A DNA stretch of 55,265 nucleotides from the NCBI GenBank assembly GCA_046753845.1, contig JBHHUP010000004.1, positions 1 to 55,265 on the forward strand. The letters run 5' to 3'. This document shows, one piece after another, positions 9,247-32,840 of the stretch. The translations under genes and the position numbers were made by a program. The notes beneath the pieces were generated by a model. The model searched no databases. It was not told where the DNA came from and worked only from the letters and a program-made list of their open reading frames with translations. The stretch is from Thermodesulfobacteriota bacterium. GTDB taxonomy: Bacteria > Desulfobacterota > GWC2-55-46 > JADFVP01. The first letter of the stretch is position 1. Each line of letters begins with the position of its first letter.

Positions 9247-9316
9247 GCCTTGCGGGGCTTACCCCGTTGAGGGCTTTGGAGGAGACATTAAATATGGATA
9301 ATAAGGTACGGTATTG

Positions 9317-19390: not shown

Positions 19391-19466
19391 TGGAGGCGGC
19401 GAGCGGATTCGAACCGCTGGATGGCAGTGTTGCAGACTGCTCCCTTAGCCACTTGGGTACGCCGCC
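19391..19466 (-). tRNA. tRNA-Cys (GCA)
   Basis: The reverse complement, GGCGGCGTACCCAAGTGGCTAAGGGAGCAGTCTGCAACACTGCCATCCAGCGGTTCGAATCCGCTCGCCGCCTCCA, folds by hand into a 76-nt cloverleaf. It has a 7-bp acceptor stem, anticodon loop CTGCAAC, T-loop TTCGAAT, discriminator U73, the A13:A22 mismatch typical of tRNA-Cys, and an encoded CCA. Confidence 0.95.
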
Positions 19467-19854: not shown

Positions 19855-20469
19855 ATGAAGAGCGCAAGATTACTGGGGGGCGGTTTTCAGCTTAAATTCT
19901 GGTTGAAGTACTGCGTGCTTACGGCAGCGGGGTTTACGGCCCTTGCATTATGTCTTTATCTTGTCACGGGCCGCGATCTGGGGCGCTCCTACGGTGAGGC
20001 CATTTACGCCATCGAGGCCCTGAGGATAAATATCTTCTCTATCATAGCGGCCTCTGTATATTCCATAGCCATCATGGTTCTTACAGTGGTCTTTATCGCC
20101 CTTGCATCCATATTTTTCTCTCACAAGATGGCCGGGCCTATTTTCAGGCTTACCCGTGACCTTGAGCTTCTCGCCTCAGGGGACCTTACGGTAGAGACCT
20201 CTTTCAGGAAAAGTGACCAGTTTTCTATTATGGCTACGGAAAAGAACTTGATGACAGAGAGGCTGAAGGTGTTTGTTACGGACTCAAGGGAGGTTTTAAC
20301 GGCGGTGCAGGCAAGGTGTGAAGATATCCGCGGTCTTATATTAGAGGCAGAGCAGAAGGGTGGCGGCGGGGCCGGTGTGGATGGGGAGATTGCCGGGGGC
20401 CTGCAGGAGCTGGCCCTCCTTGTAGAGCAGATGCATGCAAAGGCCTCAAGGATGAAGACGGTTATATAA
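19855..20469 (+). CDS. Membrane protein with two TM helices and a HAMP domain, no output domain
   Basis: 204 aa. It has an N-terminal basic motif (FQLKFWLKY) and two hydrophobic helices, then a HAMP-like AGPIFRLTRDLELLASGDLTVE...SDQFSIMATEKNLMTERLK, then a short helical tail. Confidence 0.65.
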   Translation: MKSARLLGGGFQLKFWLKYCVLTAAGFTALALCLYLVTGRDLGRSYGEAIYAIEALRINIFSIIAASVYSIAIMVLTVVFIALASIFFSHKMAGPIFRLTRDLELLASGDLTVETSFRKSDQFSIMATEKNLMTERLKVFVTDSREVLTAVQARCEDIRGLILEAEQKGGGGAGVDGEIAGGLQELALLVEQMHAKASRMKTVI

Positions 20470-20496
20470 ATAACGTAGTCTGCTAAGACCGGGGTA

Positions 20497-21315
20497 GTGG
20501 TGAAAAAGTTACTCTTTGTTCTCTTTATAATGACGGCGGCCACTGTTTTTTCAGGCGGTCTGCCTTCCTGGATGGGCGCATATCATGATTTTACAGGCAG
20601 CTGCCTTGATTGTCATATTACAAGGCCTCTTGCCGGAGACCGGAGGCTGACGCTGCGTAAAGACATAACCCAACTCTGCAATGAATGCCATAAGCAGGAT
20701 GACGGCCTTACTCACCCTGTTGACATAAAACCTACTATGGATGTTCCCGCTTATCTCCCCCTTGACTGGAGAGGCATGGTTACCTGTGTTACCTGCCATG
20801 AGGTGCATGATAGTGGTTTTGGCCCGAATCATCTGAGGACAAACGCCGGAGGACAGATATTCTGCATGTTATGCCACGACGGCCTTGGGAGCAAGAAGAT
20901 GCATGGTCTCTCCGGAGTGAGCGCCCATATGAAGGGCAAGGGCAGGCTTGTCAATGCCTCCTCCTATACTCTTTTTGGTGAGGGAATGGTCCATCTTGAT
21001 GAGATGAGCATAAAGTGCATGAGCTGTCATGACGCCATCGTTGGAGCCTCGGCTACCTCGGAAAACCTTGATATTTTAAGGAGCCGTCACAGTAACATAA
21101 CGGGTCTTACTCATCCCGTGGGGGTCTCTTACGCCGAGGCCAAGCGAAAATACAGGGGCGCTTACAGGGATATTTCCGAGCTGCCTCCGCAGATAAAGTT
21201 CTATGGCGGCATGGTGGGCTGCGGGACCTGTCACAGCCCTTATGCCGGCACACACGCGCAGCTGGTAATGGATAATTACGGGAGTAACCTCTGCCTTGCC
21301 TGTCATGTGAAGTAG
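20497..21315 (+). CDS. Secreted heptahaem c-type cytochrome
   Basis: 272 aa with a signal peptide and 7 CxxCH motifs (CLDCH, CNECH, CVTCH, CMLCH, CMSCH, CGTCH, CLACH). THPV/HPVG distal-His-like motifs are also present. The start is GTG. Confidence 0.9.
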   Translation: MVKKLLFVLFIMTAATVFSGGLPSWMGAYHDFTGSCLDCHITRPLAGDRRLTLRKDITQLCNECHKQDDGLTHPVDIKPTMDVPAYLPLDWRGMVTCVTCHEVHDSGFGPNHLRTNAGGQIFCMLCHDGLGSKKMHGLSGVSAHMKGKGRLVNASSYTLFGEGMVHLDEMSIKCMSCHDAIVGASATSENLDILRSRHSNITGLTHPVGVSYAEAKRKYRGAYRDISELPPQIKFYGGMVGCGTCHSPYAGTHAQLVMDNYGSNLCLACHVK

Positions 21316-21369
21316 GCGGCTCTGTAGTTGAATATCAGGTAATTTCATGTTAGTATATTGAGGTGCGAG

Positions 21370-21981
21370 ATGGGTAAATACCCGTGGCTCCGGAGAAGGA
21401 AGTTTTTTATCAAGAGATCCCTGCAGGGCCGCTTTGTGGCGGGGCTCGTTATACTTGTCACCTGCGGTCTCTTTATCGATCTTGTTGCCGCGTATTTTCT
21501 CATTGAGGGCAGGCTTACAGAGCGGCTTTATAAAATTCACTTGCAGGTCAGCTCCACCTCGGATATAATCGGGCCTGTAATATGGAAGCTCGCTACAGTG
21601 AGCGTTCCATTCATAGTCCTCGCAGGTGTTGCCCTCGGGTATATGCTGACCAGATCTCTTGAGGCAGGGCTGACGCGCCAGATAGAGGCCATGAAGATGG
21701 CCGGGCAGGACGGGGACCTTACGGTGAGGCTTGCCGCTGCCTCGAGTAATAACCTGGAGACAGCGCGGGGGGCCTTTAATGACGCCATGGAGCTCCTTGA
21801 CGAGAGGTGCGCCGCGGTACAGGTCTCGGCCGCTGAGATAGAGGCCGCCATGAAAGAGCTGGGCCCCGCTGAAGATATCCGCGCAAGCGAGTTAAGCAGA
21901 GCGGAAGTTATCAAAAAACTGGATCATATGAGTACTAAAACCGAGTTTGCCCTAAACAAGCTCTCAATATTCAAGGTTTGA
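21370..21981 (+). CDS. Membrane protein with two TM helices and a HAMP domain, no output domain (paralogous architecture to 19855-20469)
   Basis: RRRKFFIKRSLQGRF N-terminal motif, two TM helices, a HAMP-like LTRSLEAGLTRQIEAMKMAGQDGDLTVRL...ARGAFNDAMELL, and a helical tail. ATG 21370, preceded by GAGG, is preferred over TTG 21358. Confidence 0.65.
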   Translation: MGKYPWLRRRKFFIKRSLQGRFVAGLVILVTCGLFIDLVAAYFLIEGRLTERLYKIHLQVSSTSDIIGPVIWKLATVSVPFIVLAGVALGYMLTRSLEAGLTRQIEAMKMAGQDGDLTVRLAAASSNNLETARGAFNDAMELLDERCAAVQVSAAEIEAAMKELGPAEDIRASELSRAEVIKKLDHMSTKTEFALNKLSIFKV

Positions 21982-21987
21982 TACTAT

Positions 21988-23139
21988 ATGAAACAACATC
22001 ATCATAGAAAAAACGTCTCTATCTTTCTTAAGCTCTTTACTGCCCTAATCCTATTCTCAAGTTCTTTGTTTCTGATTCCGGGCCATGCTCATGCAGATTG
22101 GCCCATGTTTATGAAGGACAAGAATCACTCCTCCTTTGCCTCCATGGCTCCAAGGCCTCCTATGAAGGTGCTCTGGAAGTTTGCCACGGGCGGGCCCGTA
22201 TATTCATCGCCTGTTGTCTCGGGCGGCAAGGTCTTTGTGGGGTCTTATGATAAGAAGCTCTACGCACTTAAAGCAGCCACGGGAGCAAGGCTCTGGAGTT
22301 TTGCTACGGGCGGAGCTATACTCTCAACACCGGCCGTTAAGGAAGGCCGTGTGTATTTTGGCTCAAAGGACGGTAAGTTCTATTGTCTTGATGCCTCTTC
22401 AGGAAAGCTTATCTGGAGCTTCACCACAGAGGGCCCTGTGCTTACATCTCCCGTTGTAGAGGACGGCAAGGTCTTTTTCGGCTCATCGGATCTGCGTTTT
22501 TACGCCCTTGACGCTGCCACGGGAAAGCGTCTCTGGCGGATGAGGCTCCTGGATTACCAGAAATACAGCGGTATCTACGCATCTCCTGTTTACTACGATG
22601 GCGCGGTTATCTTCGCCGGTAAAAACGGTGCCCTCTACTCGCAGGACGGCAAGAGCGGAGGCAGAAACTGGGGGTTGGCAAGTCATTCGGCCATATACTC
22701 AAGCCCCGTTATAAAGAACGGCAAGATTTATCTCGCCACCGGTGAGCGTAAGTTATTAGGCATTAACGCCAAGGACGGCAAGATCTTCTTCAGAAAATCT
22801 ATCGGCAGCGCCCTTGCATACGCCTCTCCCGTAGTGGCGGGCGGTAAGATATATCTGGCCTATAAAGACGGACATATAAGGGCCTACGGCCTACGGCGAG
22901 GCCGTGAGCTTGCCGATTATAAGCTCCCGGCCCCTCTTAACTCCACGCCTGTTGTTACCTCCAATGGTTTTATATACGTCGGCAGCGAGGACGGCCGGAT
23001 TTACGCCATTGACATTATACTTGGCGAGGTAAGCTGGAGTTATTTGACGGGCGGCGGCATACACAGCTCGCCGGCTATATCAGGCAAGAAGCTCTTTATC
23101 GCCTCTAAAGACGGTTCTGTATATGCCTTCGGGCGGTAG
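21988..23139 (+). CDS. Secreted PQQ-like (BamB-type) beta-propeller repeat protein
   Basis: 383 aa with a signal peptide (..LIPGHAHA/DWP). The repeated unit is SSPVV.GGKVFVGS.D.KLYAL.A.TG...W, about 8 times. Confidence 0.85.
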   Translation: MKQHHHRKNVSIFLKLFTALILFSSSLFLIPGHAHADWPMFMKDKNHSSFASMAPRPPMKVLWKFATGGPVYSSPVVSGGKVFVGSYDKKLYALKAATGARLWSFATGGAILSTPAVKEGRVYFGSKDGKFYCLDASSGKLIWSFTTEGPVLTSPVVEDGKVFFGSSDLRFYALDAATGKRLWRMRLLDYQKYSGIYASPVYYDGAVIFAGKNGALYSQDGKSGGRNWGLASHSAIYSSPVIKNGKIYLATGERKLLGINAKDGKIFFRKSIGSALAYASPVVAGGKIYLAYKDGHIRAYGLRRGRELADYKLPAPLNSTPVVTSNGFIYVGSEDGRIYAIDIILGEVSWSYLTGGGIHSSPAISGKKLFIASKDGSVYAFGR

Positions 23140-23230
23140 CTTCTAATGGTTATTTAATCTTTATTATGTGAAAAAATATACTGCAGGCGGCTCTCTATTT
23201 ACGGGCCGCTATAAAAGGTCAGGGTGCCTC

Positions 23231-23845
23231 ATGCGAGACGTATTACACTTACGAATTCTTAGAACACTTATTCTGCTTGGTCTTTTTGTCTTGGCCGGTT
23301 CCGGCACTCTTCTGGCGAAGGAGAAAAAGGATAACAAAGTCGCCGAGGCTCCGCCGCTCTCTTACAGCCTGAAGGAGGCCAGGAGCACGATTCTTAACCC
23401 CCATGAACAGATAAATGATGAGGGTGAGATTCTCTGGTCAAGGTGTCTTGTATGCCACAAGGTTATGCCTGATACCGTTAACCTGAAATCACCTGAGAAC
23501 ATGAAGTTTAGATTCGCCGATGATATTAATAAGAATTGTTATGTCTGTCATATCGTAAGAAAACACCCCGCCTCGGAGGGTATCGGCCCGCAGATGAGCG
23601 GTTTTATCGCCCCAAGCCACCTGGCGGAGCCTTCAAGGACAGTATACCTGAATATGAGGCTTATGAAGAAGGACCTACCGGTACTGCTGCCTCTGGACCC
23701 CGCAACGGGAAAGATATTCTGCGGAACATGCCACAATCCCCATGAGAGGGGGCTGCTTTACGGCAGGCCTGACTGGGGCGCTGATCAGGGGGCCCGCCTC
23801 AGAAGCGAGGGGGGGGACATCTGTCAGTATTGTCACAGAAAATAG
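23231..23845 (+). CDS. Secreted tetrahaem c-type cytochrome
   Basis: 4 CxxCH motifs (CLVCH, CYVCH, CGTCH, CQYCH). ATG 23231 gives a normal signal peptide (MRDVLHLRILRTLILLGLFVLAGSGTLLA/KE). The track start, GTG 23168, would add 21 aa in front of it. Confidence 0.85.
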   Translation: MRDVLHLRILRTLILLGLFVLAGSGTLLAKEKKDNKVAEAPPLSYSLKEARSTILNPHEQINDEGEILWSRCLVCHKVMPDTVNLKSPENMKFRFADDINKNCYVCHIVRKHPASEGIGPQMSGFIAPSHLAEPSRTVYLNMRLMKKDLPVLLPLDPATGKIFCGTCHNPHERGLLYGRPDWGADQGARLRSEGGDICQYCHRK

Positions 23846-23866
23846 ACGCGGGCATCTGGTGATATT

Positions 23867-25000
23867 ATGAGAAGATATTCCTTTTTTTACAATGTTTCTG
23901 GTAAAGGGCCGGGCCTTCGCTTTCGGCCGCTTCGCTCTGCAGCGGTTCTCTCACGCCTCACTCTCCTGCTCCTCATACTCTTTGTTGCCGCCTCTGGCTG
24001 CGGCAGCCCTGATATTTCCTCACAGCAGTCAAAAGACTTTAAGCATAAACCCCTTATCTGGCCCGCGCCTCCGGCCCCGGCCCGCATAGCCTTTGATATT
24101 TCACTGGCAAAGCCCGAGGACGTAGGGATTAAGAAAGGCCTTTTTGCAAAAGTTGTAGATGTCCTGATAGGGGCCAACCAGAGGACTATGGTGAAGCCCT
24201 ATGGTATTGCCGTAGATACGGAGGGAAGGGTCATCGTCGCAGATACCGCCTTTAAGAGAGTTCATATATATGACAAAAAGAAAAAAAAGTATCTTTATAT
24301 AGATAGAGCCAGGAAGACGCCGCTGGTCTCGCCCATAGGTGTGGCAACAGACAGCGAGGATAATATATATGTAAGCGATTCTATTGCGCGAAAGGTCTAT
24401 GTCTTTAACCGCAAAGGCTCTCTCCTACGCAGTATAGACGGCGGAACCCGTCCTACGGGTATAGCCGTAGACGCAGCGAGAAAGCGTCTTTATGTAGTCG
24501 ATACGGGCGAGCATAAGGTGCGGGTATTATCCCTTCAGGGTAAACTCATTACGGCCTTCGGCGGCCTCGGCAATAAAAACGGTAAATTTAATTATCCCAT
24601 GGATATCTTTGTTGACGGCAGGGGTGACCTTTATATAACAGACTCGATGAATTACAGGGTGCAGATATTCGATATGAACGGCCGATATCTCACGGGTTTT
24701 GGAGAGCACGGCGACGGCACCGGAGATTTTGGCAGGCCCAAGGGTATAGCCGTTGACTCAGAGGGCAATATATACGTTGCTGACGCTATATTCGATACAG
24801 TGCAGATATTTTCCAGAAAAGGGGCCTTTCTACTTAACTTCGGAAAACTCGGTGCCGGCCCCGGGATGTTCTGGATGCCCGGAGGGGTCTTCATAGACGG
24901 CTCTGATAATATCTTCGTGGCAGACCCGTACAACAGAAGAGTTGAGGTCTTCGAGTATCTTGGCGGCGGAAGCGGTACCTCTTCTGCGCGCGGCGGATGA
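23867..25000 (+). CDS. NHL-repeat six-bladed beta-propeller protein, probable lipoprotein
   Basis: 377 aa with a hydrophobic N-terminus ending in the lipobox-like VAASGC. Six repeats of the NHL pattern are present (P.GIAVD..G.IYV.D..N.RV.VF...G). Confidence 0.85.
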   Translation: MRRYSFFYNVSGKGPGLRFRPLRSAAVLSRLTLLLLILFVAASGCGSPDISSQQSKDFKHKPLIWPAPPAPARIAFDISLAKPEDVGIKKGLFAKVVDVLIGANQRTMVKPYGIAVDTEGRVIVADTAFKRVHIYDKKKKKYLYIDRARKTPLVSPIGVATDSEDNIYVSDSIARKVYVFNRKGSLLRSIDGGTRPTGIAVDAARKRLYVVDTGEHKVRVLSLQGKLITAFGGLGNKNGKFNYPMDIFVDGRGDLYITDSMNYRVQIFDMNGRYLTGFGEHGDGTGDFGRPKGIAVDSEGNIYVADAIFDTVQIFSRKGAFLLNFGKLGAGPGMFWMPGGVFIDGSDNIFVADPYNRRVEVFEYLGGGSGTSSARGG

Positions 25001-25233
25001 GTTCGGGCGGTAGTTTTGAGGCATATATGTATAGCGGTTTCTCGGGGCGTTGTAACAGGACCGCAAGGTTTTACGGGCAGGGATAGAGGGGTAGTATGGA
25101 GAGGCCTTCAGGGGCCGGGGAGTTAAGGAGTTAAGCGGGGCTTTGCTAAGAACACAGAGGTATCGCGTGGCAGAGGGTCTGCTCTGCTGTGATTATAAAG
25201 TGCGGGCGGTTTGTAATTTGTCTGGAGGTTTTT

Positions 25234-27471
25234 TTGAGAAACGCAGAGTACAACAAGAAAAACAGTAATGATTGCTCCGTCAAAGGACATATAGCGGCGC
25301 GCGTTCTGGTCTATGCTCTGGGTATCGTGATATTCGCGGGACTCTCTCTTACCCTTAAACCCGCTTTTGCCACAGTAGCCGCCACAAAACACAACTTCGG
25401 CATCTTTTCGGGAGCCGCGATAAAAACGGGCTCTACTACAAGGGTATGCGTCTTCTGCCATGCCCCTCATAATACCAGCCCCTCGGGGCCCATGTGGAAC
25501 AGAGAGGACTCAGGCGCTACTTATAATATCTATCAGAGCGAGACCATAGTGGCTACCATGGGCCAGCCTACGGGTTCATCAAAGCTCTGCCTCTCCTGTC
25601 ACGACGGCACTATAGCCATTGGCTCACTTAAGAACGTTACCGGTGTTGTAGGCCCTTATACCCTGCCTGTTACAGGCCCGGGGGTAGCGGGCGCAGGCCC
25701 CGATGCCGGTAAACTTACATCTGTCTCTACGGCTTTTATAGGCACAGACCTTCGAGACGACCACCCGCTCTCTTTTGATTATGCACTCTCCTATCCTGCC
25801 AACCTGGAGATTAAGGCCGATACGGCCCTACCGGCGGCGGTAAAGCTGGATAAGAACAACATGGTGCAGTGCACAAGCTGCCATGATCCCCACGGCACCA
25901 TATATCCGGCCTTTATGGTAACGAGCCTTGAGAACGGCGTACTCTGTGAAGCCTGTCATACGAAGAGATACTGGGGGGCGGGTTCGGCACACAGGGACTC
26001 GCTGGCGGTATGGAACCAGACGGGTGAGAATCCCTACCATCTGGATATGGGAGCGGCGGGTTTTGCCGATGATACACCGCAGATGCAGAGCTGTCTTGCC
26101 TGCCATCGCTCCCATGGCGGCGTGGCGGCCAAAAGCCTTCTGAAGGGTACGGACCCTGTGAGCTCAACCATGGTGGCTGAGGAGTGGACATGCCTAAACT
26201 GCCATAACGGCAATGTGGCGGGCAAGGATATAAATGCTCTTTTCGCAAAGATCTCAAAACACGATGTAAAGGGCGTAAGCGGAGCTCATATACCTTCAAG
26301 GGACCCTGTGGCTCCCGGCGACCCGGCGCGGGAAACGGCGGCTAATATTAATTTTACCCGCCACGCTGAGTGCTCGGATTGTCACAACCCCCACGGAGTC
26401 CAGGCAGGCAACCACGCCGTAGGCGGTATCAACGGCAATGTTATCGGCCCCAACCTTCTGGGGTCATGGGGCGTTATGCCCACTATCTGGCCTCTTTCGG
26501 GCCCTGCTTTTTCCTATCAGGTTGTTGACTTTACCTCAACCCTTCCCGGCGGGGATAACCTCGAGGGCTACCTCTGCATTAAGTGCCATTCTTATTACGC
26601 ATACTCGACGATTCCCCCCAACGTGCCATCGGGTGACCCCAACAGCGGCGGTATAGTGAGGCAATCGGATCCCACGGATGACTTTAATATAAATAACAAG
26701 GGTTTTCATCCCGTTTTCGGCCAGGGGAAAAACCGGCCGCCCATCGGGGCCAACCCCAACTGGCCCAAGAACCTCGACGGATCACCTAACGGACTTGGCC
26801 TTACCAATACCTTCAGTTATGTGGAGCCTACTTCATTGCCGAGGACCGGTTTTTATAATTTTAAGCATGACTCCACTATGACCTGTACGGATTGCCATGG
26901 CCCTGACCGCACTTCTCTGTTGGGCCCATTAGATCCTCAGGGGCCTCATGGATCGAATAACAAGTGGATCCTCAGAAGCAATGAGACGGGCGTAGGTACT
27001 CTTGGGAACTTCTGTTACAATTGTCACAGGCGCGATGTATACGGAGATGAAGGTTTTGTGGGGCCGCAGGCTAATTTTTCAAGGGTTCCACATCCGGTGG
27101 ACGGCCTGGGCACGGCCTCTCCCTTTTATACTCTGGGTGCTGGTACGGGTAATGACAGCAATTACTTTGGAAACCTCTGCCTCACATGTCACGGCGGCGG
27201 TTTTGATACCCTCAATACTATGATGAAGGGCATTCACGGAAGCAACGCTCCGGCCGGTGTCGTGGCGGGCTCAAGTCCTCTTGGCTACAGGCTTATGAAC
27301 GGGGCCTGCATGGAGTCTTATGTGCCGGCTACGCCATTTGCCGGCGCCCAGCTTTACTTCAGGACAGTTGACACGGCGCTGGACAAGGTCTGCAAACATA
27401 ATTTTGCTGATATTCTCACTGGAGTTACGGCTACTTACAGCTGTAATACCGTTGCTGACTGTTCCAATTAG
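25234..27471 (+). CDS. Secreted undecahaem c-type cytochrome
   Basis: 11 CxxCH motifs, several as CxxCH(D/N/A)PH(G/N), which is the doubled-CXXCH style common in Geobacter-type cytochromes. In-frame TTG 25234 lies 5 nt after GGAGG (25224-25228) and gives a plausible signal peptide ending ..KPAFA/TVA. The track start, GTG 25189, is less likely. Confidence 0.85.
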   Translation: MRNAEYNKKNSNDCSVKGHIAARVLVYALGIVIFAGLSLTLKPAFATVAATKHNFGIFSGAAIKTGSTTRVCVFCHAPHNTSPSGPMWNREDSGATYNIYQSETIVATMGQPTGSSKLCLSCHDGTIAIGSLKNVTGVVGPYTLPVTGPGVAGAGPDAGKLTSVSTAFIGTDLRDDHPLSFDYALSYPANLEIKADTALPAAVKLDKNNMVQCTSCHDPHGTIYPAFMVTSLENGVLCEACHTKRYWGAGSAHRDSLAVWNQTGENPYHLDMGAAGFADDTPQMQSCLACHRSHGGVAAKSLLKGTDPVSSTMVAEEWTCLNCHNGNVAGKDINALFAKISKHDVKGVSGAHIPSRDPVAPGDPARETAANINFTRHAECSDCHNPHGVQAGNHAVGGINGNVIGPNLLGSWGVMPTIWPLSGPAFSYQVVDFTSTLPGGDNLEGYLCIKCHSYYAYSTIPPNVPSGDPNSGGIVRQSDPTDDFNINNKGFHPVFGQGKNRPPIGANPNWPKNLDGSPNGLGLTNTFSYVEPTSLPRTGFYNFKHDSTMTCTDCHGPDRTSLLGPLDPQGPHGSNNKWILRSNETGVGTLGNFCYNCHRRDVYGDEGFVGPQANFSRVPHPVDGLGTASPFYTLGAGTGNDSNYFGNLCLTCHGGGFDTLNTMMKGIHGSNAPAGVVAGSSPLGYRLMNGACMESYVPATPFAGAQLYFRTVDTALDKVCKHNFADILTGVTATYSCNTVADCSN

Positions 27472-27621
27472 AGAGGGGGCCGCCCTGTGGGCGGCCTTCA
27501 TTATATTGATGGGCGTGAGGAGAATGTCGAGCGAGAGATTACGGATGGACGCGGGATTACCGGCGGGCACGCGGAGCAAGACAAGATTACGGGCAGGCAG
27601 TCTTCGGGAGGGTGTGAAGTT

Positions 27622-28038
27622 ATGGTCCTAAGTACGGGCAGGTCTCTAAGGGCGGGGTTTCTTGCGGCTGTATTCGCTCTTGTCTTTTTGTTTGTTTCCG
27701 GGCCGGCCGCTCCGGGTGAGGTACGGGCCGCTAATCCCCATGATTGGCATGATAAAGGACAGTGCGCGACTTGCCACGAAAGCGCCATGCCCGCGCTGAA
27801 ATTTGATAGCGTAACGGTATGCACGCACTGCCATGACGGTTATATTGAAAATCATCCCGTGACAAAACACCCCATAGGCAAGAGGCCGGGGATAAACATA
27901 AGCAGGCGTATGCCCCTTGACTCGGGCGGAAAACTTGTCTGCTACACCTGTCACGATATGCACAACAGGTCTGATTACCCTAATATGCTGAGGATAGACT
28001 ATCTGCGGCTATGCTCGGCCTGTCACAGAGGTTATTGA
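27622..28038 (+). CDS. Small tetrahaem c-type cytochrome with N-terminal hydrophobic helix
   Basis: 4 CxxCH motifs (CATCH, CTHCH, CYTCH, CSACH) in about 139 aa. ATG 27622 is preceded by GGGAGGGTG. The 45 aa upstream in the track ORF are hydrophilic and lie ahead of the signal/anchor sequence. Confidence 0.8.
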   Translation: MVLSTGRSLRAGFLAAVFALVFLFVSGPAAPGEVRAANPHDWHDKGQCATCHESAMPALKFDSVTVCTHCHDGYIENHPVTKHPIGKRPGINISRRMPLDSGGKLVCYTCHDMHNRSDYPNMLRIDYLRLCSACHRGY

Positions 28039-29006
28039 TGAAATTCTTTTATGGAGGTCTTTTTATATTGAAGCGCTCTCATGTCAATATCTTGGCGGCG
28101 GTCCTTGTTCTTATGGCCGCGGTTCTTTTAACCGATACTCTTACCGCGGCTGCGGCAGGGTCAGAGAACTCTCCCGGCAAGGGGTATTATAAGACGGCGC
28201 CTCCTTCCTGGTACGGCTCTGTTGTGATGAAGAAAAATATTAACAGAGGCGCCGAGGTGGCCCCTGTTGTCTTTAAACACTGGGTGCACAGAAGATTTTA
28301 TACCTGTAATGTCTGTCACGCGGATCTGGGGTTTGCATGGAAAGCCGGCGGTACGGATATAAGGCATAGTGATATTGACGCTGGAAAAAAATGCGGAGCC
28401 TGTCATAACGGCGATCTCGCCTTTGGTCGGGAGAAGTGTAACCGCTGTCATTCCTACGGGCGCAGGGTTGCGGAAAACTCCCGTCTTAAGTACGCACTCA
28501 AGGATTTTCCCGCCGATGATTTCGGGAATAAGATTGATTGGGTTAAGGCCCTTCATGAGGATAAGATAACTCCGCAGGTTTCTCTTGGCGGTAAGGGCAA
28601 GCTCACTTCCCTCGATAAAGACGTACTTCTTCCGGCATACAGCCGTGCGAGATACGCCCCTTCCACGCCTGATGTAATGTTCCCGCATAAGTCCCATACC
28701 GAGATACTCGACTGTGCCGCATGCCACCCGGCTCGTTTTAAGCCTAAAAAGGGCGGCAACCCCGAGATGGATATGATGAAGATTATAAACGGAGAGTACT
28801 GCGGTGCCTGTCACGGCAAAGTGGCTTTTCCTCTTGAGAATTGTTTCCGCTGTCACTCCGTAGAGCGCGCTGTCCCTGATTGGATTACCGGCGCGGACGT
28901 CGCGAAAGAGAAGGCCGAGAAGGAAAAGGCCAAGAAGAAGGCGAAAGAAGAGGCGGAAAAGAGGAAAAAGAAAAAGAAGAAAAAAAGGAGAACAACTCTC
29001 TTTTAG
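28038..29006 (+). CDS. Hexahaem cytochrome built from two c7/c3-type trihaem domains, with a poly-Lys C-terminal tail
   Basis: 6 CxxCH in two similar units (FKHWVH..CNVCH..CGACHNG.LAF...CNRCH and FPHKSH..CAACH..CGACHGKVAFP..CFRCH). The signal peptide is MKFFYGGLFILKRSHVNILAAVLVLMAAVLL. ATG 28038 overlaps the upstream TGA by 1 nt. The C-terminus ends KRKKKKKKKRRTTLF. Confidence 0.85.
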   Translation: MKFFYGGLFILKRSHVNILAAVLVLMAAVLLTDTLTAAAAGSENSPGKGYYKTAPPSWYGSVVMKKNINRGAEVAPVVFKHWVHRRFYTCNVCHADLGFAWKAGGTDIRHSDIDAGKKCGACHNGDLAFGREKCNRCHSYGRRVAENSRLKYALKDFPADDFGNKIDWVKALHEDKITPQVSLGGKGKLTSLDKDVLLPAYSRARYAPSTPDVMFPHKSHTEILDCAACHPARFKPKKGGNPEMDMMKIINGEYCGACHGKVAFPLENCFRCHSVERAVPDWITGADVAKEKAEKEKAKKKAKEEAEKRKKKKKKKRRTTLF

Positions 29007-29094: not shown

Positions 29095-31704
29095 ATGGAA
29101 GTTATCTCCGCCCATACGAACGCGGACTTTGATACCCTTGCCTCGATGGTAGCCGCCCAGAAGCTATATCCGCAAGCCAGGCTCGTCTTTCCGGGCTCCC
29201 TTGAGAAGACACTTAAGGAGGCCCTCTCCACCGCTAATCTGAACCTTCGATTTTATAAGATTAAAGAGATAGATCTCGCCCTTGTTACACGCCTCATACT
29301 CGTTGATGTTAGAAACCCCGCGAGGATAGGTAAATTCGCATCCATAACGCGCCGCGCCGGCCTTGAGATTCATATCTACGACCATCACCGCGCGGGAGAA
29401 GGAGATCTCTCGGGAGTGGTAGAGGTGGTCAAAGACTACGGTTCTACGACTACGGTGCTTATAGAGTTACTAAGAGAGCGTGGGCTCCACGTCTCATCGG
29501 CCGAGGCCACGGTAATGATGGCAGGCATCTACGAGGACACGGGCTCGCTTACCTATCCCTCTACTACCGTTAATGACCTTACAGCCGCGGCCTTTCTCCT
29601 TGAATCGGGCGCCGACCTCTCGGCCGTATCGGATATGCTCTTAAGAGAGCTTACCGCCGGCGAGGTCTCCTTTCTTAACGAACTCCTGCAGAACGAGAGC
29701 ACCGTTACATTCGGTGGCCGTGATATAGTCATTGCCGAGGGCACCTTTACGGAGCACAGCGGTGATATCTCCATGCTGGCCCATAAGATACGGGACATAG
29801 AGGGCATGGAGTCCCTCTTTATGCTCGTGGACTCGGGCGACAGGGTGCACGTGGTGGCAAGAAGCAAGGCCACAGGCGTAGACGTAGGCCTGATATTAAA
29901 GACTATCGGCGGCGGAGGCCATGCGCATGCGGCCTCGGCAACTCTAAAGGGCTGCACCCTTATAGAGGCCAGAGAGACCCTGATAGGGGCCCTTAAAAAG
30001 GGTGTTCTTCCTGCTGAGACGGCAGAGGATATTATGAGTTTTCCGCCTATTACGCTTGGCTCTGATGTGACTCTGCAGCAGGCATCCGCCGTACTTGGAA
30101 GATACAATATCAATGCCGTTCCCGTAGTGGAAGGGGGGGGGTTCAGCGGGGTGATTACGAGACAGACTATCGGCAAGGCCGTGTACCACGGTCTCGGCAA
30201 GGAGTGTATCGGTGACTTTATGAGCATTGATATTAAGTGCGTAGAGCCTCATACCTCAGTTGATGAGATAAGGGAGATGTTTATCTCTCATGGCCAGAGG
30301 CTTATACCTGTTGTAAAGGGCCATGAGGTTAGAGGTGTTATTACAAGAACGGATATCCTGCGGCTGCTGCAAAAGGACGCTGCAGAGGAGCATGGCACGG
30401 GGCCAAGGGTTAAGGTTATCTCGAAACTTATGCGCGACAGGCTGCCCCCGTGGCTTATGGAGAGACTGGCCTCTCTTGGCGCCGTTGCCGAGGCCCTTAA
30501 CTGCAGGGCCTATGTGGTCGGGGGGTTTGTAAGAGACCTCATACTTAAGAGAGATAACCTTGACGTGGATATAGTCATCGAGCACGGCGACGCCATAACC
30601 TTCGCCCGCCGCTACGCGGAGGAGAATAACCTGAAGGTGCGCTCGCATAAGAGGTTCAAGACGGCGGTGCTTATCTTTTCCGATGGTTTCAAGGTAGACG
30701 TGGCCACGGCCCGCCTTGAGTACTATGAGAGCCCCGGGGCTCTGCCAACGGTTGAGCAGTCATCCCTTAAGCTTGATATATACAGGCGGGATTTTATCAT
30801 CAATACCCTTGCCGTTGAGCTCAACCCCCCCTCTTTTGGCAGTCTTATAGATTTTTTTGGCGGGCAGAGGGATATAAAGGAGAAAAAAATAAGGGTCCTT
30901 CATAACCTGAGCTTTATCGAGGATCCCACGCGCGCCTTCAGGGCGGTGAGGTTTGCCGTGAAGTTCGGCTTTACCATTGAGCCTCATACTCGAAACCTTA
31001 TTAAAAAGGCCGTCAGGCTCGAGGTCTTTAAGCACCTCTCGGGGCCGCGTATCCTCGAGGAACTGCGAAGCATCCTTGAAGAGGAGAGTGCCTGTACGGC
31101 CATAAAGGCCCTAAGTGAGTTTGGGCTGCTCTCACTCGTAGAGGGGGAGATTACCTTTGATGCTGAAGGGGAGGCCTTTTTCGAGAGGTGTAAGGAGGTG
31201 CTGGGCTGGTACAGGCTCCTCTATACAGGAGTCGAGGTCACGGGTTGGCTTGTGCTTTTTCTGGCCTTGACGGACAAGCTGAGCGAGGAGAAGGTAAGGG
31301 ATATTATGGCAAGGCTCTCTATGGTTGATAAGAAAACAATGGATATAATCCCGGCGAGAAGGTTCTACATGAAGGCCCTGAAGTCTCTGGGCTCCCCCTG
31401 CCGCCCGAGCAATAGTGAGCTCTACTCCTTGCTTGCCCCGCTGCCTATTGAAGGTATCCTTTATATGATGGCAAAGACAGAAGAAGAGGATACCAAGAAG
31501 GCACTCTCCACTTACATTACCCGGTTAAGGGGGGTTACTACTGAGCTTACAGGCAGGGACCTTATGGCGCTCGGGGTCCCGGAGGGCCCGCAGATAGGGC
31601 GCACCCTGCTCTCTATTCTTTTGCTAAAGCTTGACGGAAAGATATCGGGTAAAGATGAGGAGATTGCCTTTGTAGAGCAGTCTCTAAAAGAGGCTGCAGG
31701 GTAG
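29095..31704 (+). CDS. cca: Multidomain DHH/DHHA1 phosphoesterase - CBS pair - tRNA nucleotidyltransferase (CCA-adding / poly(A) polymerase family) protein
   Basis: 869 aa. DHH motifs (HTNADFDTLAS, IYDHHR, GGGGHAHAAS) are followed by a tandem CBS region. The nucleotidyltransferase head GGFVRDLILKRDNLDVDIV and the RRDFIINTLA motif of the tRNA NTase family come next. Confidence 0.85.
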   Translation: MEVISAHTNADFDTLASMVAAQKLYPQARLVFPGSLEKTLKEALSTANLNLRFYKIKEIDLALVTRLILVDVRNPARIGKFASITRRAGLEIHIYDHHRAGEGDLSGVVEVVKDYGSTTTVLIELLRERGLHVSSAEATVMMAGIYEDTGSLTYPSTTVNDLTAAAFLLESGADLSAVSDMLLRELTAGEVSFLNELLQNESTVTFGGRDIVIAEGTFTEHSGDISMLAHKIRDIEGMESLFMLVDSGDRVHVVARSKATGVDVGLILKTIGGGGHAHAASATLKGCTLIEARETLIGALKKGVLPAETAEDIMSFPPITLGSDVTLQQASAVLGRYNINAVPVVEGGGFSGVITRQTIGKAVYHGLGKECIGDFMSIDIKCVEPHTSVDEIREMFISHGQRLIPVVKGHEVRGVITRTDILRLLQKDAAEEHGTGPRVKVISKLMRDRLPPWLMERLASLGAVAEALNCRAYVVGGFVRDLILKRDNLDVDIVIEHGDAITFARRYAEENNLKVRSHKRFKTAVLIFSDGFKVDVATARLEYYESPGALPTVEQSSLKLDIYRRDFIINTLAVELNPPSFGSLIDFFGGQRDIKEKKIRVLHNLSFIEDPTRAFRAVRFAVKFGFTIEPHTRNLIKKAVRLEVFKHLSGPRILEELRSILEEESACTAIKALSEFGLLSLVEGEITFDAEGEAFFERCKEVLGWYRLLYTGVEVTGWLVLFLALTDKLSEEKVRDIMARLSMVDKKTMDIIPARRFYMKALKSLGSPCRPSNSELYSLLAPLPIEGILYMMAKTEEEDTKKALSTYITRLRGVTTELTGRDLMALGVPEGPQIGRTLLSILLLKLDGKISGKDEEIAFVEQSLKEAAG

Positions 31705-32006: not shown

Positions 32007-32082
32007 GGGCCCATAGCTCAGTTGGAAGAGCCACCGGCTCATAACCGGTCGGTCCCAGGTTCGAGTCCTGGTGGGCCCACCA
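32007..32082 (+). tRNA. tRNA with CAT anticodon: elongator tRNA-Met or lysidine-dependent tRNA-Ile2
   Basis: GGGCCCATAGCTCAGTTGGAAGAGCCACCGGCTCATAACCGGTCGGTCCCAGGTTCGAGTCCTGGTGGGCCCACCA folds by hand into a 76-nt cloverleaf. It is not an initiator: 1:72 is G:C and the anticodon stem lacks the three G:C pairs. The acceptor pairs C4:G69 and C5:G68 resemble E. coli tRNA-Ile2, so Ile2 is slightly favoured. Confidence 0.9.
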
Positions 32083-32132
32083 ATTACTCATTGGAGAAAT
32101 TTTTGTCAAGCCCTCTACTCATACTGGCAGGC

Positions 32133-32840
32133 ATGCAGAAGATAGACCTTGTTATTAAGGCTATGGATGATGAGGCAAAGGCTTATGAGAAGAAAATAAC
32201 GGAGTTTTCCACCAAGTTGGAGGGGGTGAAAGGCCTTATCGCCGATACCGATAAGGAGCTTGCGGATATCGCCGAAGTGCTTGGAGAGGTAGATCTTCGT
32301 ATCACCCAGTCCAATGAGAGGATTAAAAAAAACGAGGAGCGGATACGCTCTGTTAGCGGAAATAAGGAACTTAAGGCCCTTAATAAAGAGACGAGTACGG
32401 CAAGTAAGATAATCCGTCAGGCCGAGAAAGACGCCGCCGAGCTGAAGGCGCGCCGTGTTGAGCAGGGACTCCTTAAGGAGGCCAGAGAGCTTACCGCCGA
32501 GGGGATAAAGACCGAGATTGAGTCTTTGCGTGCTGAACTTGCCGAGAAGGGCGGGAGATGGCAGGATGAACTTGAGGGCAAGAAGGCGGAGCGCGCGGCC
32601 CTTCGGGCCGACCTCTCAGAGGGTATATATAATATCTACGAGAGGATACGGCTAAGCAAGGGCGGCACAGCCGTTGTGCCCCTGAGAAAAGAGGCCTGTC
32701 AGGGCTGTTTTATGCATGTTCCCACGCAGCTTTATGTAAAGCTCAAGCGCGGCGATGAAGAGATTATAATGTGCCCTCACTGCGACCGCATACTTTACGT
32801 TGAGGATCTCCCGGCCTCTGCAGAGGCCCCCTCGGCATGA
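32133..32840 (+). CDS. Coiled-coil protein with C-terminal C4 zinc ribbon (COG1579-type)
   Basis: A long heptad-rich region is followed by CQGCFMHVP...MCPHCDRILY. The start is moved to ATG 32133 because the track ORF (32022) runs through the tRNA gene. Confidence 0.75.
   Translation: MQKIDLVIKAMDDEAKAYEKKITEFSTKLEGVKGLIADTDKELADIAEVLGEVDLRITQSNERIKKNEERIRSVSGNKELKALNKETSTASKIIRQAEKDAAELKARRVEQGLLKEARELTAEGIKTEIESLRAELAEKGGRWQDELEGKKAERAALRADLSEGIYNIYERIRLSKGGTAVVPLRKEACQGCFMHVPTQLYVKLKRGDEEIIMCPHCDRILYVEDLPASAEAPSA

Follow-up and report, generated by a model that had tools for sequence, protein, structure and literature searches.

We favour, with some reserve, the reading that the nine genes between positions 19855 and 29006 of the window (the whole 55-kb stretch of DNA analysed, 55,265 nucleotides) are a lineage-specific, porin-less derivative of the extracellular electron-transfer clusters of OmcE-nanowire and Uet type, and that their products would relay electrons through haems between inner membrane and envelope surface. 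A first-pass annotation of the same DNA had proposed a self-contained electron-transfer or cytochrome-assembly system with propellers as scaffolds, chaperones or substrate-binding modules; its electron-transfer part is supported, its placing of the locus outside known systems is not. All nine co-directional + strand open reading frames were recovered at the coordinates first annotated (Table 1), as was the total of 32 CxxCH motifs in five cytochromes (7 in g2, 4 in g5, 11 in g7, 4 in g8 and 6 in g9). The remaining ~14,100 residues of the called window proteins contain no CxxCH, and residue shuffles of the nine locus proteins gave a mean of 0.09 (maximum 2). Gene starts were chosen by ribosome-binding site (g3, ATG 21370; g5, ATG 23231 or GTG 23168; g7, TTG 25234 with GGAGG upstream; g8, ATG 27622 with GGGAGGG; g9, ATG 28038 with AGAGG), and these starts reproduce the gaps of 27, 54, 6, 91 (28 from GTG 23168), 21, 233, 150 and -1 nt. 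Histidine counts in all five cytochromes permit bis-His ligation, and motif counts and domain-model searches found neither CxxCK nor a catalytic domain in them; these are electron-transfer cytochromes only, as the earlier remark on a missing catalytic subunit had it.

Table 1. Features of the locus, in window coordinates
Feature	Position	Strand	Description
g1 (H1)	19855..20469	+	Inner-membrane protein: 2 TM, HAMP, C-terminal helical hairpin; without output domain
g2 (C7)	20497..21315	+	Heptahaem c-type cytochrome; N-terminal membrane helix, then directly haem 1
g3 (H3)	21358..21981	+	Paralogue of g1: 2 TM and HAMP, no output; ATG 21370 likely start
g4	21988..23139	+	8-bladed BamB/PQQ-like beta-propeller, secreted; not a lipoprotein
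g5 (C4a)	23231..23845	+	Secreted tetrahaem cytochrome; alternative start GTG 23168
g6	23867..25000	+	NHL-repeat six-bladed beta-propeller lipoprotein; partner of the undecahaem
g7 (C11)	25234..27471	+	Secreted undecahaem: N-terminal OmcE-like tetrahaem domain and 7-haem extension
OmcE-like domain of g7	25318..25965	+	Residues about 29-244 of the 745-aa protein
GC-rich hairpin	27475..27499	+	Directly after the g7 stop codon
g8 (C4b)	27622..28038	+	Small secreted tetrahaem cytochrome, 138 aa
g9 (2c7)	28038..29006	+	Hexahaem: two c7-type trihaem domains, Lys-rich C-terminal tail

The tie to OmcE lies in g7, whose N-terminal domain (~215 residues) is homologous to the OmcE nanowire subunits of G. 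sulfurreducens (7TFS_A, profile E=4e-41) and D. soudanensis (9YUQ_N, profile E=2.8e-35). The alignments run end to end and match the TKH motif (located just behind the predicted point of signal-peptide cleavage) along with four CxxCH and four distal His. A weaker repeat of the same domain occupies the middle region, residues 246-500 (hhalign probability 96%, E=2e-9). Across 67 aligned sequences the 11 CxxCH motifs and 12 further His are invariant, the 11 haem sites all fall at equivalent positions in 17 members spanning about 10 phyla, and relatives are encoded in at least 515 species-representative genomes from more than 15 phyla. The AF2 model of g7 has a pTM of 0.71, and Foldseek was uninformative for its fold class. 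Its partner g6 has an NHL domain (E=8e-29), matches the TRIM71 NHL propeller (E=9e-59) and carries the lipobox LFVAASG-C; these searches, with those for g4 below, bear out the two propellers first annotated. Of 78 loci, drawn from many phyla, 61 have an NHL gene directly 5' of the one for the undecahaem. This pair is a hallmark of OmcE-nanowire and Uet-type clusters, and together with the full OmcE-like domain of g7 it argues against placing the locus outside known systems.

The nine genes recur in identical order in two relatives (L002 and L006, at 34-58% identity) and keep that order in L101 too. Within the extent of their contigs, L095, L096, L090 and L102 also keep it, except that two TPR genes are inserted after C7 and before H3 (in L090, three additional ORFs); the TPR proteins found there in the sister clade have N-terminal helices. 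Gene order is retained even in metagenomic relatives at about 33% identity, so that the locus is a conserved, co-inherited unit and no mosaic. From the 78 loci we reconstructed a canonical cluster of an OmcE-like C4, an NHL protein, a C5, a ~670-aa barrel-like protein, a second NHL protein and C11. We call the ~670-aa family barrel-like from its composition, the literature and an aromatic last residue, present in 40 of 47 full-length members; it has no Pfam match. The barrel-like gene accompanies C11 in 52 of 78 loci, many of the remainder being incomplete, and a separate OmcE-like tetrahaem lies beside C11 in 39. Free OmcE, pentahaem and barrel-like genes are all absent from the window and from L002, L005, L006 and L007, while the clade has added the BamB-like propeller with its tetrahaem, the small tetrahaem, the di-c7 hexahaem and the HAMP/heptahaem/HAMP triplet. 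A six-frame search with the family profile found no barrel-like member anywhere in the 55 kb, extending the earlier observation of a missing porin to the whole window; because free OmcE-like and haem-lyase genes are missing there too, outer-membrane crossing is unsupported within it. The sister clade, however, keeps a barrel-like gene directly upstream of the H1 orthologue. The porin-less version therefore seems derivative, the gene having been lost or relocated, and it is doubtful that the system is self-contained.

Two published gene sets resemble these clusters. In the minimal OmcE cluster (Petersen et al., bioRxiv 10.1101/2025.10.22.684050), OmcE is accompanied by a pair of multihaem cytochromes, a pair of beta-propeller lipoproteins and a large beta-barrel; this six-gene set of the Desulfuromonadia matches our reconstructed canonical relatives. 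Our locus likewise pairs a beta-propeller lipoprotein gene with a multihaem cytochrome gene, but it has a single NHL lipoprotein, lacks the free tetrahaem OmcE, large beta-barrel and pentahaem, and fuses the OmcE-like module to seven more haems in g7; it adds the triplet, the BamB-like propeller, two small tetrahaems and the di-c7 protein. The canonical cluster also fits uetABCDEFGHIJ of 'Ca. Tenderia electrophaga' and Gallionella, a bioinformatic proposal with NHL proteins UetH/I, undecahaem UetJ and c7 proteins UetD/E/G, put forward for electron uptake by aerobic autotrophs (bioRxiv 10.1101/2022.05.06.490989; PMC10734462). Shared features are an NHL gene directly before an 11-CxxCH cytochrome in which no further domain is annotated, a tetrahaem, and proteins with c7-type trihaem domains; g7 is of the UetJ type, the Tenderia UetJ being known here by description rather than sequence. 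Two gammaproteobacterial loci with g7 relatives (L003, L009) have the NHL, C11, ResB/CcsA arrangement described for Uet, whereas the window is without the UetC barrel, UetB prolyl isomerase, UetF cupredoxin and ccsAB, and its host belongs to an uncultured Thermodesulfobacteriota lineage. The first-pass annotation had allowed that membership in a known system might explain the whole set; a match to OmcE and Uet is there, but it does not explain the whole set. The OmcE/Uet model accounts neither for the HAMP/heptahaem/HAMP triplet and the BamB-like propeller nor for the absence of barrel and OmcE genes.

The additional propeller, g4, matches Pfam PQQ_2 (E=4e-52) and, over residues 110-381, E. 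coli BamB (E=2.5e-24), and scores 171 bits against TIGR03300 BamB, under the 285-bit cut-off; its signal peptide ends AHA-D and its sole Cys is internal. A g5 orthologue follows directly in every relative having g4. With 4 CxxCH, 9 His and a signal peptide, g5 has orthologues at 51% identity in L002 and L004 and no significant PDB relative. That a cytochrome gene lies directly 3' of each propeller gene fits propellers acting as partners or, as suggested earlier, scaffolds. The small tetrahaem g8 (4 CxxCH, 10 His) resembles known structures in its paired-CXXCH motif only, and has orthologues 3' of C11 in L002, L004, L005, L007, L095 and L096. For g9, the di-c7 assignment with a poly-Lys tail proved sound: TIGR04257 nanowire_3heme matches in two stretches (E=7e-36), 3OV0 (deposited as 'Cytochrome c family protein', and which we take to be dodecahaem GSU1996) matches at E=1e-35, and the tail is Lys-rich. 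Orthologous tails are Lys/Glu-rich too, the run of seven Lys being specific to the window's copy. In its c7 trihaem domains g9 is like the periplasmic c7 cytochromes of Geobacter (PpcA family), but it has two of them, not one or four, and a highly basic tail.

The HAMP/heptahaem/HAMP trio at the inner membrane is previously undescribed. Its members come from at least five phyla: the trio is embedded in a canonical cluster in L166, adjoins one in L165, L003, L030, L057 and L059, and stands by itself in L167. The N-terminal helix of g2 is apparently uncleaved; 18 orthologues keep the hydrophobic N-terminus leading into YH(D/N)F..G.CxxCH, and their C7 gene is mostly translationally coupled to H1. 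The family (162 clusters, about 255-290 aa) has seven conserved distal His candidates. Like NapC, NirT, NrfH and CymA, g2 has a single N-terminal membrane helix with a conserved His and the first CxxCH within about 8 residues, so the NrfH-like topology once ascribed to g8 belongs here instead. Unlike them it has seven haems rather than four, no CxxCHxM site and scores far under family thresholds (residues 24-69 match the NrfH model at 19.7 bits against a cut-off of 134), and the flanking HAMP-only proteins have no counterpart in that family. By hydropathy, g1 has TM helices at 19-39 and about 60-94; its orthologues share an invariant FFSHKxAGP junction and an AS1/GDLTV connector/AS2 pattern, and its AF2 model is all helices (pLDDT 72.5), with no significant match in a fold search. 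The g1 family profile aligns with Tsr residues 192-322 (E=7e-4) and also with Aer 214-336. Its paralogue g3 (25% identity, E=3e-4) has a GDLT connector and a periplasmic-loop His (His61 in 207-aa numbering) that is invariant across deltaproteobacterial, gammaproteobacterial and Nitrospirota members. The Pfam HAMP model does not match g1 or g3 directly, but PF00672 matches their L167 orthologues, and with the Tsr alignment and AS1/connector/AS2 pattern this upholds their description as output-less HAMP proteins. HAMP-containing receptors without output are known, for example Af1503 of Archaeoglobus. Compared with Tsr and Aer, which share the passage of TM2 into a HAMP, g1 and g3 lack a sensor domain (the periplasmic loop is about 20 residues) and any kinase-control, kinase or cyclase output, and the two paralogues bracket a cytochrome gene.

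How might these parts work together? On our reading, g2 would sit in the inner membrane on its own helix and in company with g1 and g3, which would probably form a hetero-oligomer and add four TM helices. Its electron exchange would be with the quinone pool or with donors in the inner membrane, and the cytoplasmic HAMP bundles may report or regulate its state. The di-c7 g9, with g5 and g8, could be the soluble carriers that take electrons over the periplasm, g4 serving as a docking or folding partner of g5. The g6 propeller, as an outer-membrane lipoprotein, would hold or mature g7, a putative wire, estimated from its 11 stacked haems at roughly 10 nm, that is built from the OmcE nanowire-type tetrahaem module and further haem modules. 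Where the proteins sit, and in which sequence and direction electrons would pass between them, is inferred; a barrel encoded elsewhere may let g7 reach the outside.

A serious competitor to electron entry through g2, though one we lean against, is that the triplet senses redox state or occupancy and electrons enter via another quinol dehydrogenase. The TM helices would then relay the redox state of the cytochrome to the HAMP bundles, with the invariant His of the g3 loop as a possible intermediary, and the signal would go on to a kinase, cyclase or chemotaxis partner encoded apart from the triplet. In favour of such a role, conservation in g1 is found in the membrane-spanning helices, where TM2 meets the HAMP domain, and in the helices of that domain, and not in the periplasmic loop. 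The wider HAMP-only family (2,817 representative clusters at E<=1e-10, the best 150 of these all about 180-220 aa) is uniformly output-less, occurs mainly in non-cytochrome contexts and often adjoins bitopic proteins or histidine kinases, and its role may be signalling rather than electron entry. A soluble histidine kinase follows the triplet in L030, a kinase/regulator pair ends the cluster in L166, and the triplet can stand alone; in Geobacter, moreover, the chemoreceptors GSU0582 and GSU0935 link periplasmic c-haem sensor domains to HAMP. But no output partner accompanies the nine-gene locus; the closest gene for a HAMP-cyclase is 5 kb away and unlinked in relatives. The conserved His of g2 suffice for seven bis-His haems, and there is therefore no obvious ligand-binding site; seven haems are many for a sensor, and H1-C7 coupling is as in structural complexes. 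Electron transfer and sensing are not, in any case, mutually exclusive.

It is unlikely, but conceivable, that the locus is a purely periplasmic network for electron storage or distribution: in this clade the system would have ceased to reach outside, and the barrel and filament subunit would have been lost for that reason. Tethered through the lipoprotein g6, g7 would then serve with g5, g8 and g9 as a buffer or router of electrons, linking inner-membrane complexes to reductases or oxidases of the periplasm whose genes lie elsewhere. The genes missing from the window and four relatives would fit, as would the clade's gain of periplasmic-type carriers (C4a, C4b, di-c7) and a soluble propeller; the c7-type proteins nearest g9 are called periplasmic carriers in the Tenderiales preprint (bioRxiv 10.1101/2022.05.06.490989). 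Yet in other loci the pair of NHL lipoprotein and C11 goes with clusters that contain a barrel, the barrel-like gene adjoins the same nine genes in the sister clade, and the gene for a barrel may simply lie at another place in the genome. In g7 every OmcE-type ligand is invariant, which argues that the ancestral function was kept.

We give least credence to the locus being mainly a cytochrome maturation or secretion machine, its propellers and HAMP proteins acting as chaperones or gates for cytochromes here or elsewhere. In 2025 Shen et al. reportedly described, in Cell Chem Biol, the G. sulfurreducens osc operon, in which a nanowire cytochrome is encoded with beta-propeller-like and accessory proteins. 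PMC13194489, citing Shen et al. 2025, reports the proposal that this OmcS companion operon encodes a folding factor and components for secretion, besides OscD, which affects the morphology of nanowires. The concept is alike (nanowire-type cytochrome, beta-propeller-like protein, accessories for folding, export and shaping), and the placing of cytochrome genes after propeller genes and the TPR proteins inserted in the sister clade would suit such a machine. But the osc parallel is by description only, not by sequence, and no ATPase, prolyl isomerase, haem lyase or channel was found in the 55-kb window; the HAMP proteins lack transporter features, and five of the nine genes, with their 32 haems, encode cytochromes.

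Slightly less improbable, to our minds, is that g7 is itself a nanowire subunit, polymerizing head to tail through its OmcE-like domain with inter-subunit His-haem coordination and so replacing tetrahaem OmcE. Its OmcE-like domain is complete, TKH sits right after the predicted cleavage site, no free OmcE gene is present in the locus, and polymer formation was also considered by the Uet authors (bioRxiv 10.1101/2022.05.06.490989; PMC10734462). Against this, C11 coexists with a separate OmcE-like tetrahaem in most phyla, suggesting a different, non-redundant role for C11; a homopolymer requires 22 ligating His where 23 are invariant, and the window offers no barrel for export. A strong hairpin 3' of the gene would be expected for a highly expressed major subunit, and the one after g7 has an 11-bp stem with 9 GC and a folding energy of -26.6 kcal/mol, but it is not conserved in L002 or L004-L007. 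It has no T-rich tail, and is possibly an attenuator or mRNA stabiliser.

Judged by its sequence and synteny, the nine-gene plus-strand locus g1-g9 (19855-29006) is a variant of the OmcE/Uet type of cytochrome cluster. The first-pass annotation had described a nine-gene extracytoplasmic cytochrome locus and placed it outside known systems; the description stands, and the placement gives way to the OmcE/Uet assignment. All nine ORFs are present with their haem motifs: 32 CxxCH (7, 4, 11, 4 and 6 in the five cytochromes) fall within the 2,942 residues of the nine proteins, compared with zero among the ~14,100 residues of the remaining called proteins of the window, and shuffling the residues of the nine proteins yields a mean of 0.09 such motifs and a maximum of 2. 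The gene spacing reported earlier is likewise reproduced with RBS-supported starts (g7 TTG 25234, g8 ATG 27622, g9 ATG 28038). For g8 the ATG is favoured because a GC-rich hairpin 3' of g7, which has no T-rich tail, overlaps the alternative GTG start at 27487. We rejected this hairpin as a conserved regulatory element, as it is absent from five related loci. Promoter-like matches in the locus number 12, compared with 9.4 expected by chance.

The tie to OmcE lies in g7, a member of the undecahaem family that we call C11. Over its first ~210 positions the C11 profile matches the OmcE nanowire proteins of G. sulfurreducens (7TFS_A, E=4e-41) and D. soudanensis (9YUQ_N, E=2.8e-35), in alignments that start at the signal peptide, reach the C-terminal residue of OmcE and include the TKH motif, four CxxCH and four distal His. 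In g7 itself, it is residues 29-244 that align over their whole length with 7TFS and 9YUQ, and the aligned H53, H79, H177 and H220, like the four CxxCH, are invariant in 67 relatives. Four CxxCH plus four conserved distal His in OmcE order define an OmcE homologue, and g7 has them all. At 745 aa and 11 haems it is not a single-domain tetrahaem of ~200-230 aa like OmcE. A weaker repeat of the OmcE-like module occupies g7 246-500 (hhalign probability 96%, E=2e-9), and no stand-alone OmcE-like ORF was found in the locus. The AF2 model of g7 (single chain, without haems) has a pTM of 0.71 and a confident C-terminal half; Foldseek returned no matches for it, an uninformative null since published work reports the same outcome for OmcE and OmcS themselves, in this coil-rich class.

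The C11 family is large, counting over 5,000 members in the protein collection and occurring in at least 515 species-representative genomes, and its phyla include Thermodesulfobacteriota, Pseudomonadota, Verrucomicrobiota, Planctomycetota, Calditrichota, Bacteroidota/Ignavibacteria, Nitrospirota, Acidobacteriota, Zixibacteria, Elusimicrobia and Myxococcota. The 11 CxxCH are positionally equivalent in 17 members from ~10 phyla, and all of them, together with 12 other His, are invariant in 67 sequences, giving 23 invariant His for 11 haems (2n+1). A 2n+1 complement was predicted for a filament 'stopper', none of which was found in OmcE operons (Petersen et al., bioRxiv 10.1101/2025.10.22.684050). 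One of the 23 His may instead be structural. Within the literature searched, the fusion of an OmcE module into UetJ-type undecahaems appears not to have been described so far.

Gene neighbourhoods point the same way. Of 78 loci carrying a C11 gene, 61 have an NHL propeller gene directly upstream of C11, 39 encode a stand-alone OmcE-like tetra- or pentahaem, and 52 encode a member of a ~670-aa haem-free, barrel-like family to which Pfam assigns no family; the last residue is Phe or Trp in 40 of the 47 full-length members. The recurrent order, hereafter the canonical cluster, is OmcE-like tetrahaem, NHL, pentahaem (C5), ~670-aa protein, NHL, C11. It corresponds to the minimal OmcE cluster (Petersen et al., bioRxiv 10.1101/2025.10.22.684050) and overlaps with the Uet cluster as well. 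Homology and conserved linkage tie NHL and C11 to OmcE-type clusters. Compared with the minimal OmcE cluster, the window locus departs in two respects. The large beta-barrel gene is missing: jackhmmer with the ~670-aa family retrieved 64 loci and nothing in the six-frame translation of the whole window, which confirms for this family the earlier statement that no porin is present. In place of two beta-propeller lipoproteins there is one, g6, the propeller g4 being without a lipobox. As to the two further multihaem cytochromes beside OmcE, C11 is there, the pentahaem that comes before the barrel in canonical clusters has no orthologue, and other cytochromes stand in for it. In L003 (3617-4318) and many other C11 loci, the stand-alone OmcE-like protein has five CxxCH instead of four; such proteins match the '5-haem OmcE-like' group suggested as a possible new nanowire family (Petersen et al., bioRxiv 10.1101/2025.10.22.684050).

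The Uet cluster comprises the tetrahaem UetA, the barrel UetC, the c7 cytochromes UetD/E/G, the NHL proteins UetH/I and the undecahaem UetJ, followed by ccsAB (bioRxiv 10.1101/2022.05.06.490989). Its undecahaem following NHL gene(s) is paralleled by g6-g7, and its c7-type trihaem periplasmic cytochromes by g9, with two TIGR04257 domains. The UetC barrel, UetB prolyl isomerase, UetF cupredoxin and ccsAB were not found by Pfam/NCBIfam in the locus and its scanned flanks; the scan of flanking ORFs took in most of the window's first 41 kb. UetJ of Tenderia is annotated as a pseudogene without a protein accession (bioRxiv 10.1101/2022.05.06.490989), and we infer its homology to g7 from gammaproteobacterial C11 relatives with Uet-like neighbourhoods (L003 and L009, in the order NHL, C11, ResB/CcsA). 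In the literature searched, UetJ is annotated only as a doubled-CXXCH protein and no link to OmcE is drawn. C11 ties Uet electron uptake to OmcE nanowires, two subjects left unconnected there.

The other members of the window clade, L002 and L004-L007, come from MAGs of uncultured Thermodesulfobacteriota/'Deltaproteobacteria' (g7 identity 51-81%). Up to the limits of each contig they share, in this order, the PQQ/BamB-like propeller, the tetrahaem C4a, NHL, C11 (730-760 aa), the tetrahaem C4b, the di-c7 cytochrome and the same DHH-CBS-PolyA-polymerase gene, and in L002 and L006 these are preceded by H1, C7 and H3 (the counterparts of g1-g3). None of the five has a barrel-like or pentahaem gene within 10 kb, and L004 has a partial OmcE-like ORF on the opposite strand at its contig edge. 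Searching with the g1 profile brought up a sister clade (L090-L102, ~33% identity), which keeps the same order as far as its contigs extend; the synteny that the first-pass annotation asked about is thus conserved down to this level of identity. There, a barrel-family gene (716-883 aa, ending in FISIF or FVRFF) lies directly upstream of H1, which argues that the barrel-less state of the window clade is probably derived. The tRNA-Cys gene of the window occupies the position of that barrel-like gene and may mark the point of a rearrangement or deletion. Sister-clade loci often carry two TPR proteins between C7 and H3; in L095 and L096 these are paralogues of ~240-280 aa with N-terminal hydrophobic helices, and we take them to resemble apocytochrome chaperones of the NrfG/CcmI type. 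Haem biosynthesis genes stand divergently beside the cluster in L002 (1221-4728: URO-D, ferrochelatase and a protoporphyrinogen-oxidase-like gene), upstream ORFs of L006 match these by size alone, and a glutamyl-tRNA reductase gene adjoins the cluster in L165 (7970-9064). At this position the window has the tRNA-Cys and an M20 peptidase gene.

The first three genes of the locus form a triplet, a heptahaem cytochrome (C7) between two HAMP-only membrane proteins, which is an independent, conserved module. It adjoins NHL-C11 in Polarisedimenticolaceae (L003), a CG_2015 deltaproteobacterium (L030), Nitrospiraceae (L057) and a proteobacterial MAG (L059), stands beside the canonical cluster in Omnitrophota (L165), and lies within it in Hydrogenedentota (L166, in the order OmcE-like, NHL, C5, barrel-like, H, C7, H, NHL, C11, ResB, CcsA, kinase, regulator); in L167 it stands alone. 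The H1 and C7 genes usually overlap or are 9 nt apart. Within the literature searched, the triplet too appears to be undescribed so far. In the heptahaem g2, with its seven CxxCH, a conserved and apparently uncleaved N-terminal helix runs into YH(D/N)F..G.CxxCH, so that a membrane anchor followed by haem 1, as in NapC/NirT/NrfH, is present in g2 and 17 orthologues; conserved His suffice for seven bis-His haems. NapC/NirT/NrfH proteins have a tetrahaem core, whereas g2 has seven haems and scores below the family threshold (19.7 bits on the NrfH model TIGR03153, cut-off 134.2, with no PF03264 match). It had been the small tetrahaem g8 that was likened to NrfH, but its signal peptide looks cleavable and it scores 16 bits on the NrfH model; we rejected g8 as an NrfH-like quinol dehydrogenase, the anchor/haem-1 topology being that of g2. 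In L030 the gene next after the triplet encodes a soluble HisKA/HATPase kinase (8634-9536), and a HAMP-HisKA_3 kinase and a GerE-type regulator end the cluster in L166 (18072-19701). These are possible signalling partners and have no counterparts in the window locus. A conserved secreted protein of ~250-260 aa lies between C11 and the triplet in two distant lineages (L030 5739-6491, L057 9292-10077); Pfam found no family for this ORF, nor for a 601-aa ORF of L003.

The two HAMP-only proteins, g1 and g3, are distantly related paralogues (25% identity, E=3e-4), each with two TM helices, a ~20-residue periplasmic loop and a ~110-residue cytoplasmic helical tail. Pfam gives no match to either at E<=0.01, PF00672 included, and PF00672 is recorded for both proteins flanking C7 in L167. 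In the alignment of the g1 family, AS1, a GDLTV connector and AS2 come after an invariant FFSHKxAGP junction, and P95, G109, E129 and N131 are invariant (the AS2 Glu and Asn among them); this is the HAMP layout, in which AS1, connector and AS2 come immediately behind TM2 and Pro, Gly and Glu are conserved. Tsr, PcaY and Aer align with the family profile over their TM2-HAMP regions, and the all-helical AF2 model of g1 fits the TM2-HAMP layout. Foldseek with this model found nothing significant in the PDB, the best hits being chemoreceptor models at E=0.4. Paralogues of the H3 type carry an invariant His in the periplasmic loop (YKIH, YRSH or WKAH; orthologues in L002, L003, L006, L030, L057 and L090-L102); in g3 (21358-21981) this is His61, in a loop of ~24 residues, and it could contact a haem of the adjoining heptahaem. 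At E<=1e-10 the HAMP-only family comprises 2,817 representative clusters, and the best 150 of these are all ~180-220 aa and match end to end; members listed lack both precomputed Pfam domains and an informative source name. We rejected the idea that all g1 relatives are cytochrome-linked, since P0136 and most metagenomic matches lie in other contexts. Many members (family members P0259-P0406; loci L103-L163) share another conserved cluster, which, read from the sequences, runs P-type ATPase-like protein with N-terminal metal-binding-type repeats, HtrA-like protease, 130-aa protein, HAMP-only protein, pseudopilin-like protein, hybrid histidine kinase, response regulator with a C-terminal HD-type domain, NikR-like protein and TonB-receptor-like protein. 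One member adjoins a lytic transglycosylase gene.

Among the remaining proteins, g4 is a BamB-like eight-bladed propeller with an ordinary signal peptide and no lipobox. Its likeness to BamB is real at the level of fold, and it is not a BamB lipoprotein or equivalog (171 bits on TIGR03300, equivalog cut-off 285). The six-bladed NHL propeller g6 has a lipobox, as do 27 of 55 NHL partners with crude gene starts; in treating these partners as lipoproteins we rely on g6's own lipobox and on a statement in the literature. Neither of the small tetrahaems g5 and g8 has significant relatives in the PDB, and their OmcE likeness is limited to the paired-CXXCH motif. The hexahaem g9 joins its two c7 trihaem domains to a Lys-rich tail that might attach to anionic surfaces (membrane, LPS or mineral, for example); its relatives have shorter Lys/Glu/Asp-rich tails.

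We picture a chain in which g2, with g1 and g3, would form the inner-membrane end in a CymA/NrfH-like topology, the HAMP bundles sensing or regulating; g9, g5 and g8 would be periplasmic carriers, with g4 as a putative partner of g5; and the lipoprotein g6 would partner g7, the candidate distal 11-haem wire. The direction of flow differs between the models, Uet having been proposed for electron uptake (bioRxiv 10.1101/2022.05.06.490989) and OmcE for export. The main rival is a network confined to the periplasm. With no barrel in the window, outer-membrane crossing by this locus is hypothetical, and the locus also has no stand-alone OmcE-like gene; on the other side stand the OmcE-like module of g7 and the linkage of NHL-C11 to OmcE-type clusters.

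How cytochrome nanowires are anchored, started, terminated and wired is a question posed explicitly in the literature. C11, found with OmcE-like genes and in those many species, combines an OmcE module with one His beyond the needs of its own haems, making it a testable connecting or capping candidate. We speculate, and consider it rather unlikely, that UetJ-type undecahaems are base or cap subunits of OmcE-type nanowires and, independently, that the triplet is a new kind of inner-membrane cytochrome-transducer complex. The OmcE-like N-domain of g7 would then dock on the filament end, the 23rd invariant His would fill the open haem of the terminal subunit, and the fused 7-haem tail would join filament to cell; in the window clade, the anchor would work on its own after loss of filament and pore. 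The triplet, for its part, would couple respiratory electron flux to cytoplasmic signalling and, if so, would represent more than 2,800 clusters of output-less HAMP proteins without assigned function. Compact and phylogenetically widespread, the module gives this large family a first functional context. The porin-less, OmcE-less variant seen here allows study of what the NHL propeller and the long cytochrome do when no filament is there, and the locus, its function inferred from sequence and gene order, bears on the field of extracellular electron transfer.

Features in and around the cytochrome locus, with positions in the window
Feature	Position	Strand	Sequence	Remark
tRNA-Cys	19391-19466	minus		upstream border of locus
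GC-rich hairpin	27475-27499	+		4 nt past g7 stop; 11 bp, 9 GC, about -26.6 kcal/mol
g9 C-terminal tail	28900-29006		AKEKAEKEKAKKKAKEEAEKRKKKKKKKRRTTLF	most basic among orthologues
DHH-CBS-PolyA-polymerase gene	29095-31704			downstream border of locus
HAMP + adenylate/guanylate cyclase gene	34228-35652	+		~5 kb downstream of locus
TPR gene	35564-36502	+		~5 kb downstream of locus

The scanned remainder of the window is mostly housekeeping (UvrC, sugar-nucleotide enzymes, GCS2, GGT, M20 peptidase, RNase P RNA, MraW and a penicillin-binding protein), and beyond 40.9 kb it looks, from ORF sizes alone, like a cell-division and wall-synthesis operon. The HAMP-cyclase and TPR genes lie beyond tRNA-Met and RNase P RNA and are unlinked to the locus in relatives. 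For a 413-aa ORF (8005-9246, plus strand) amid sugar-nucleotide and glycerophosphotransferase genes, Pfam gives no family at E<=1e-5. For a zinc-ribbon/coiled-coil ORF (32022-32840), the listed TTG start at 32022 overlaps the tRNA-Met gene (32007-32082), and the real start is probably further downstream.
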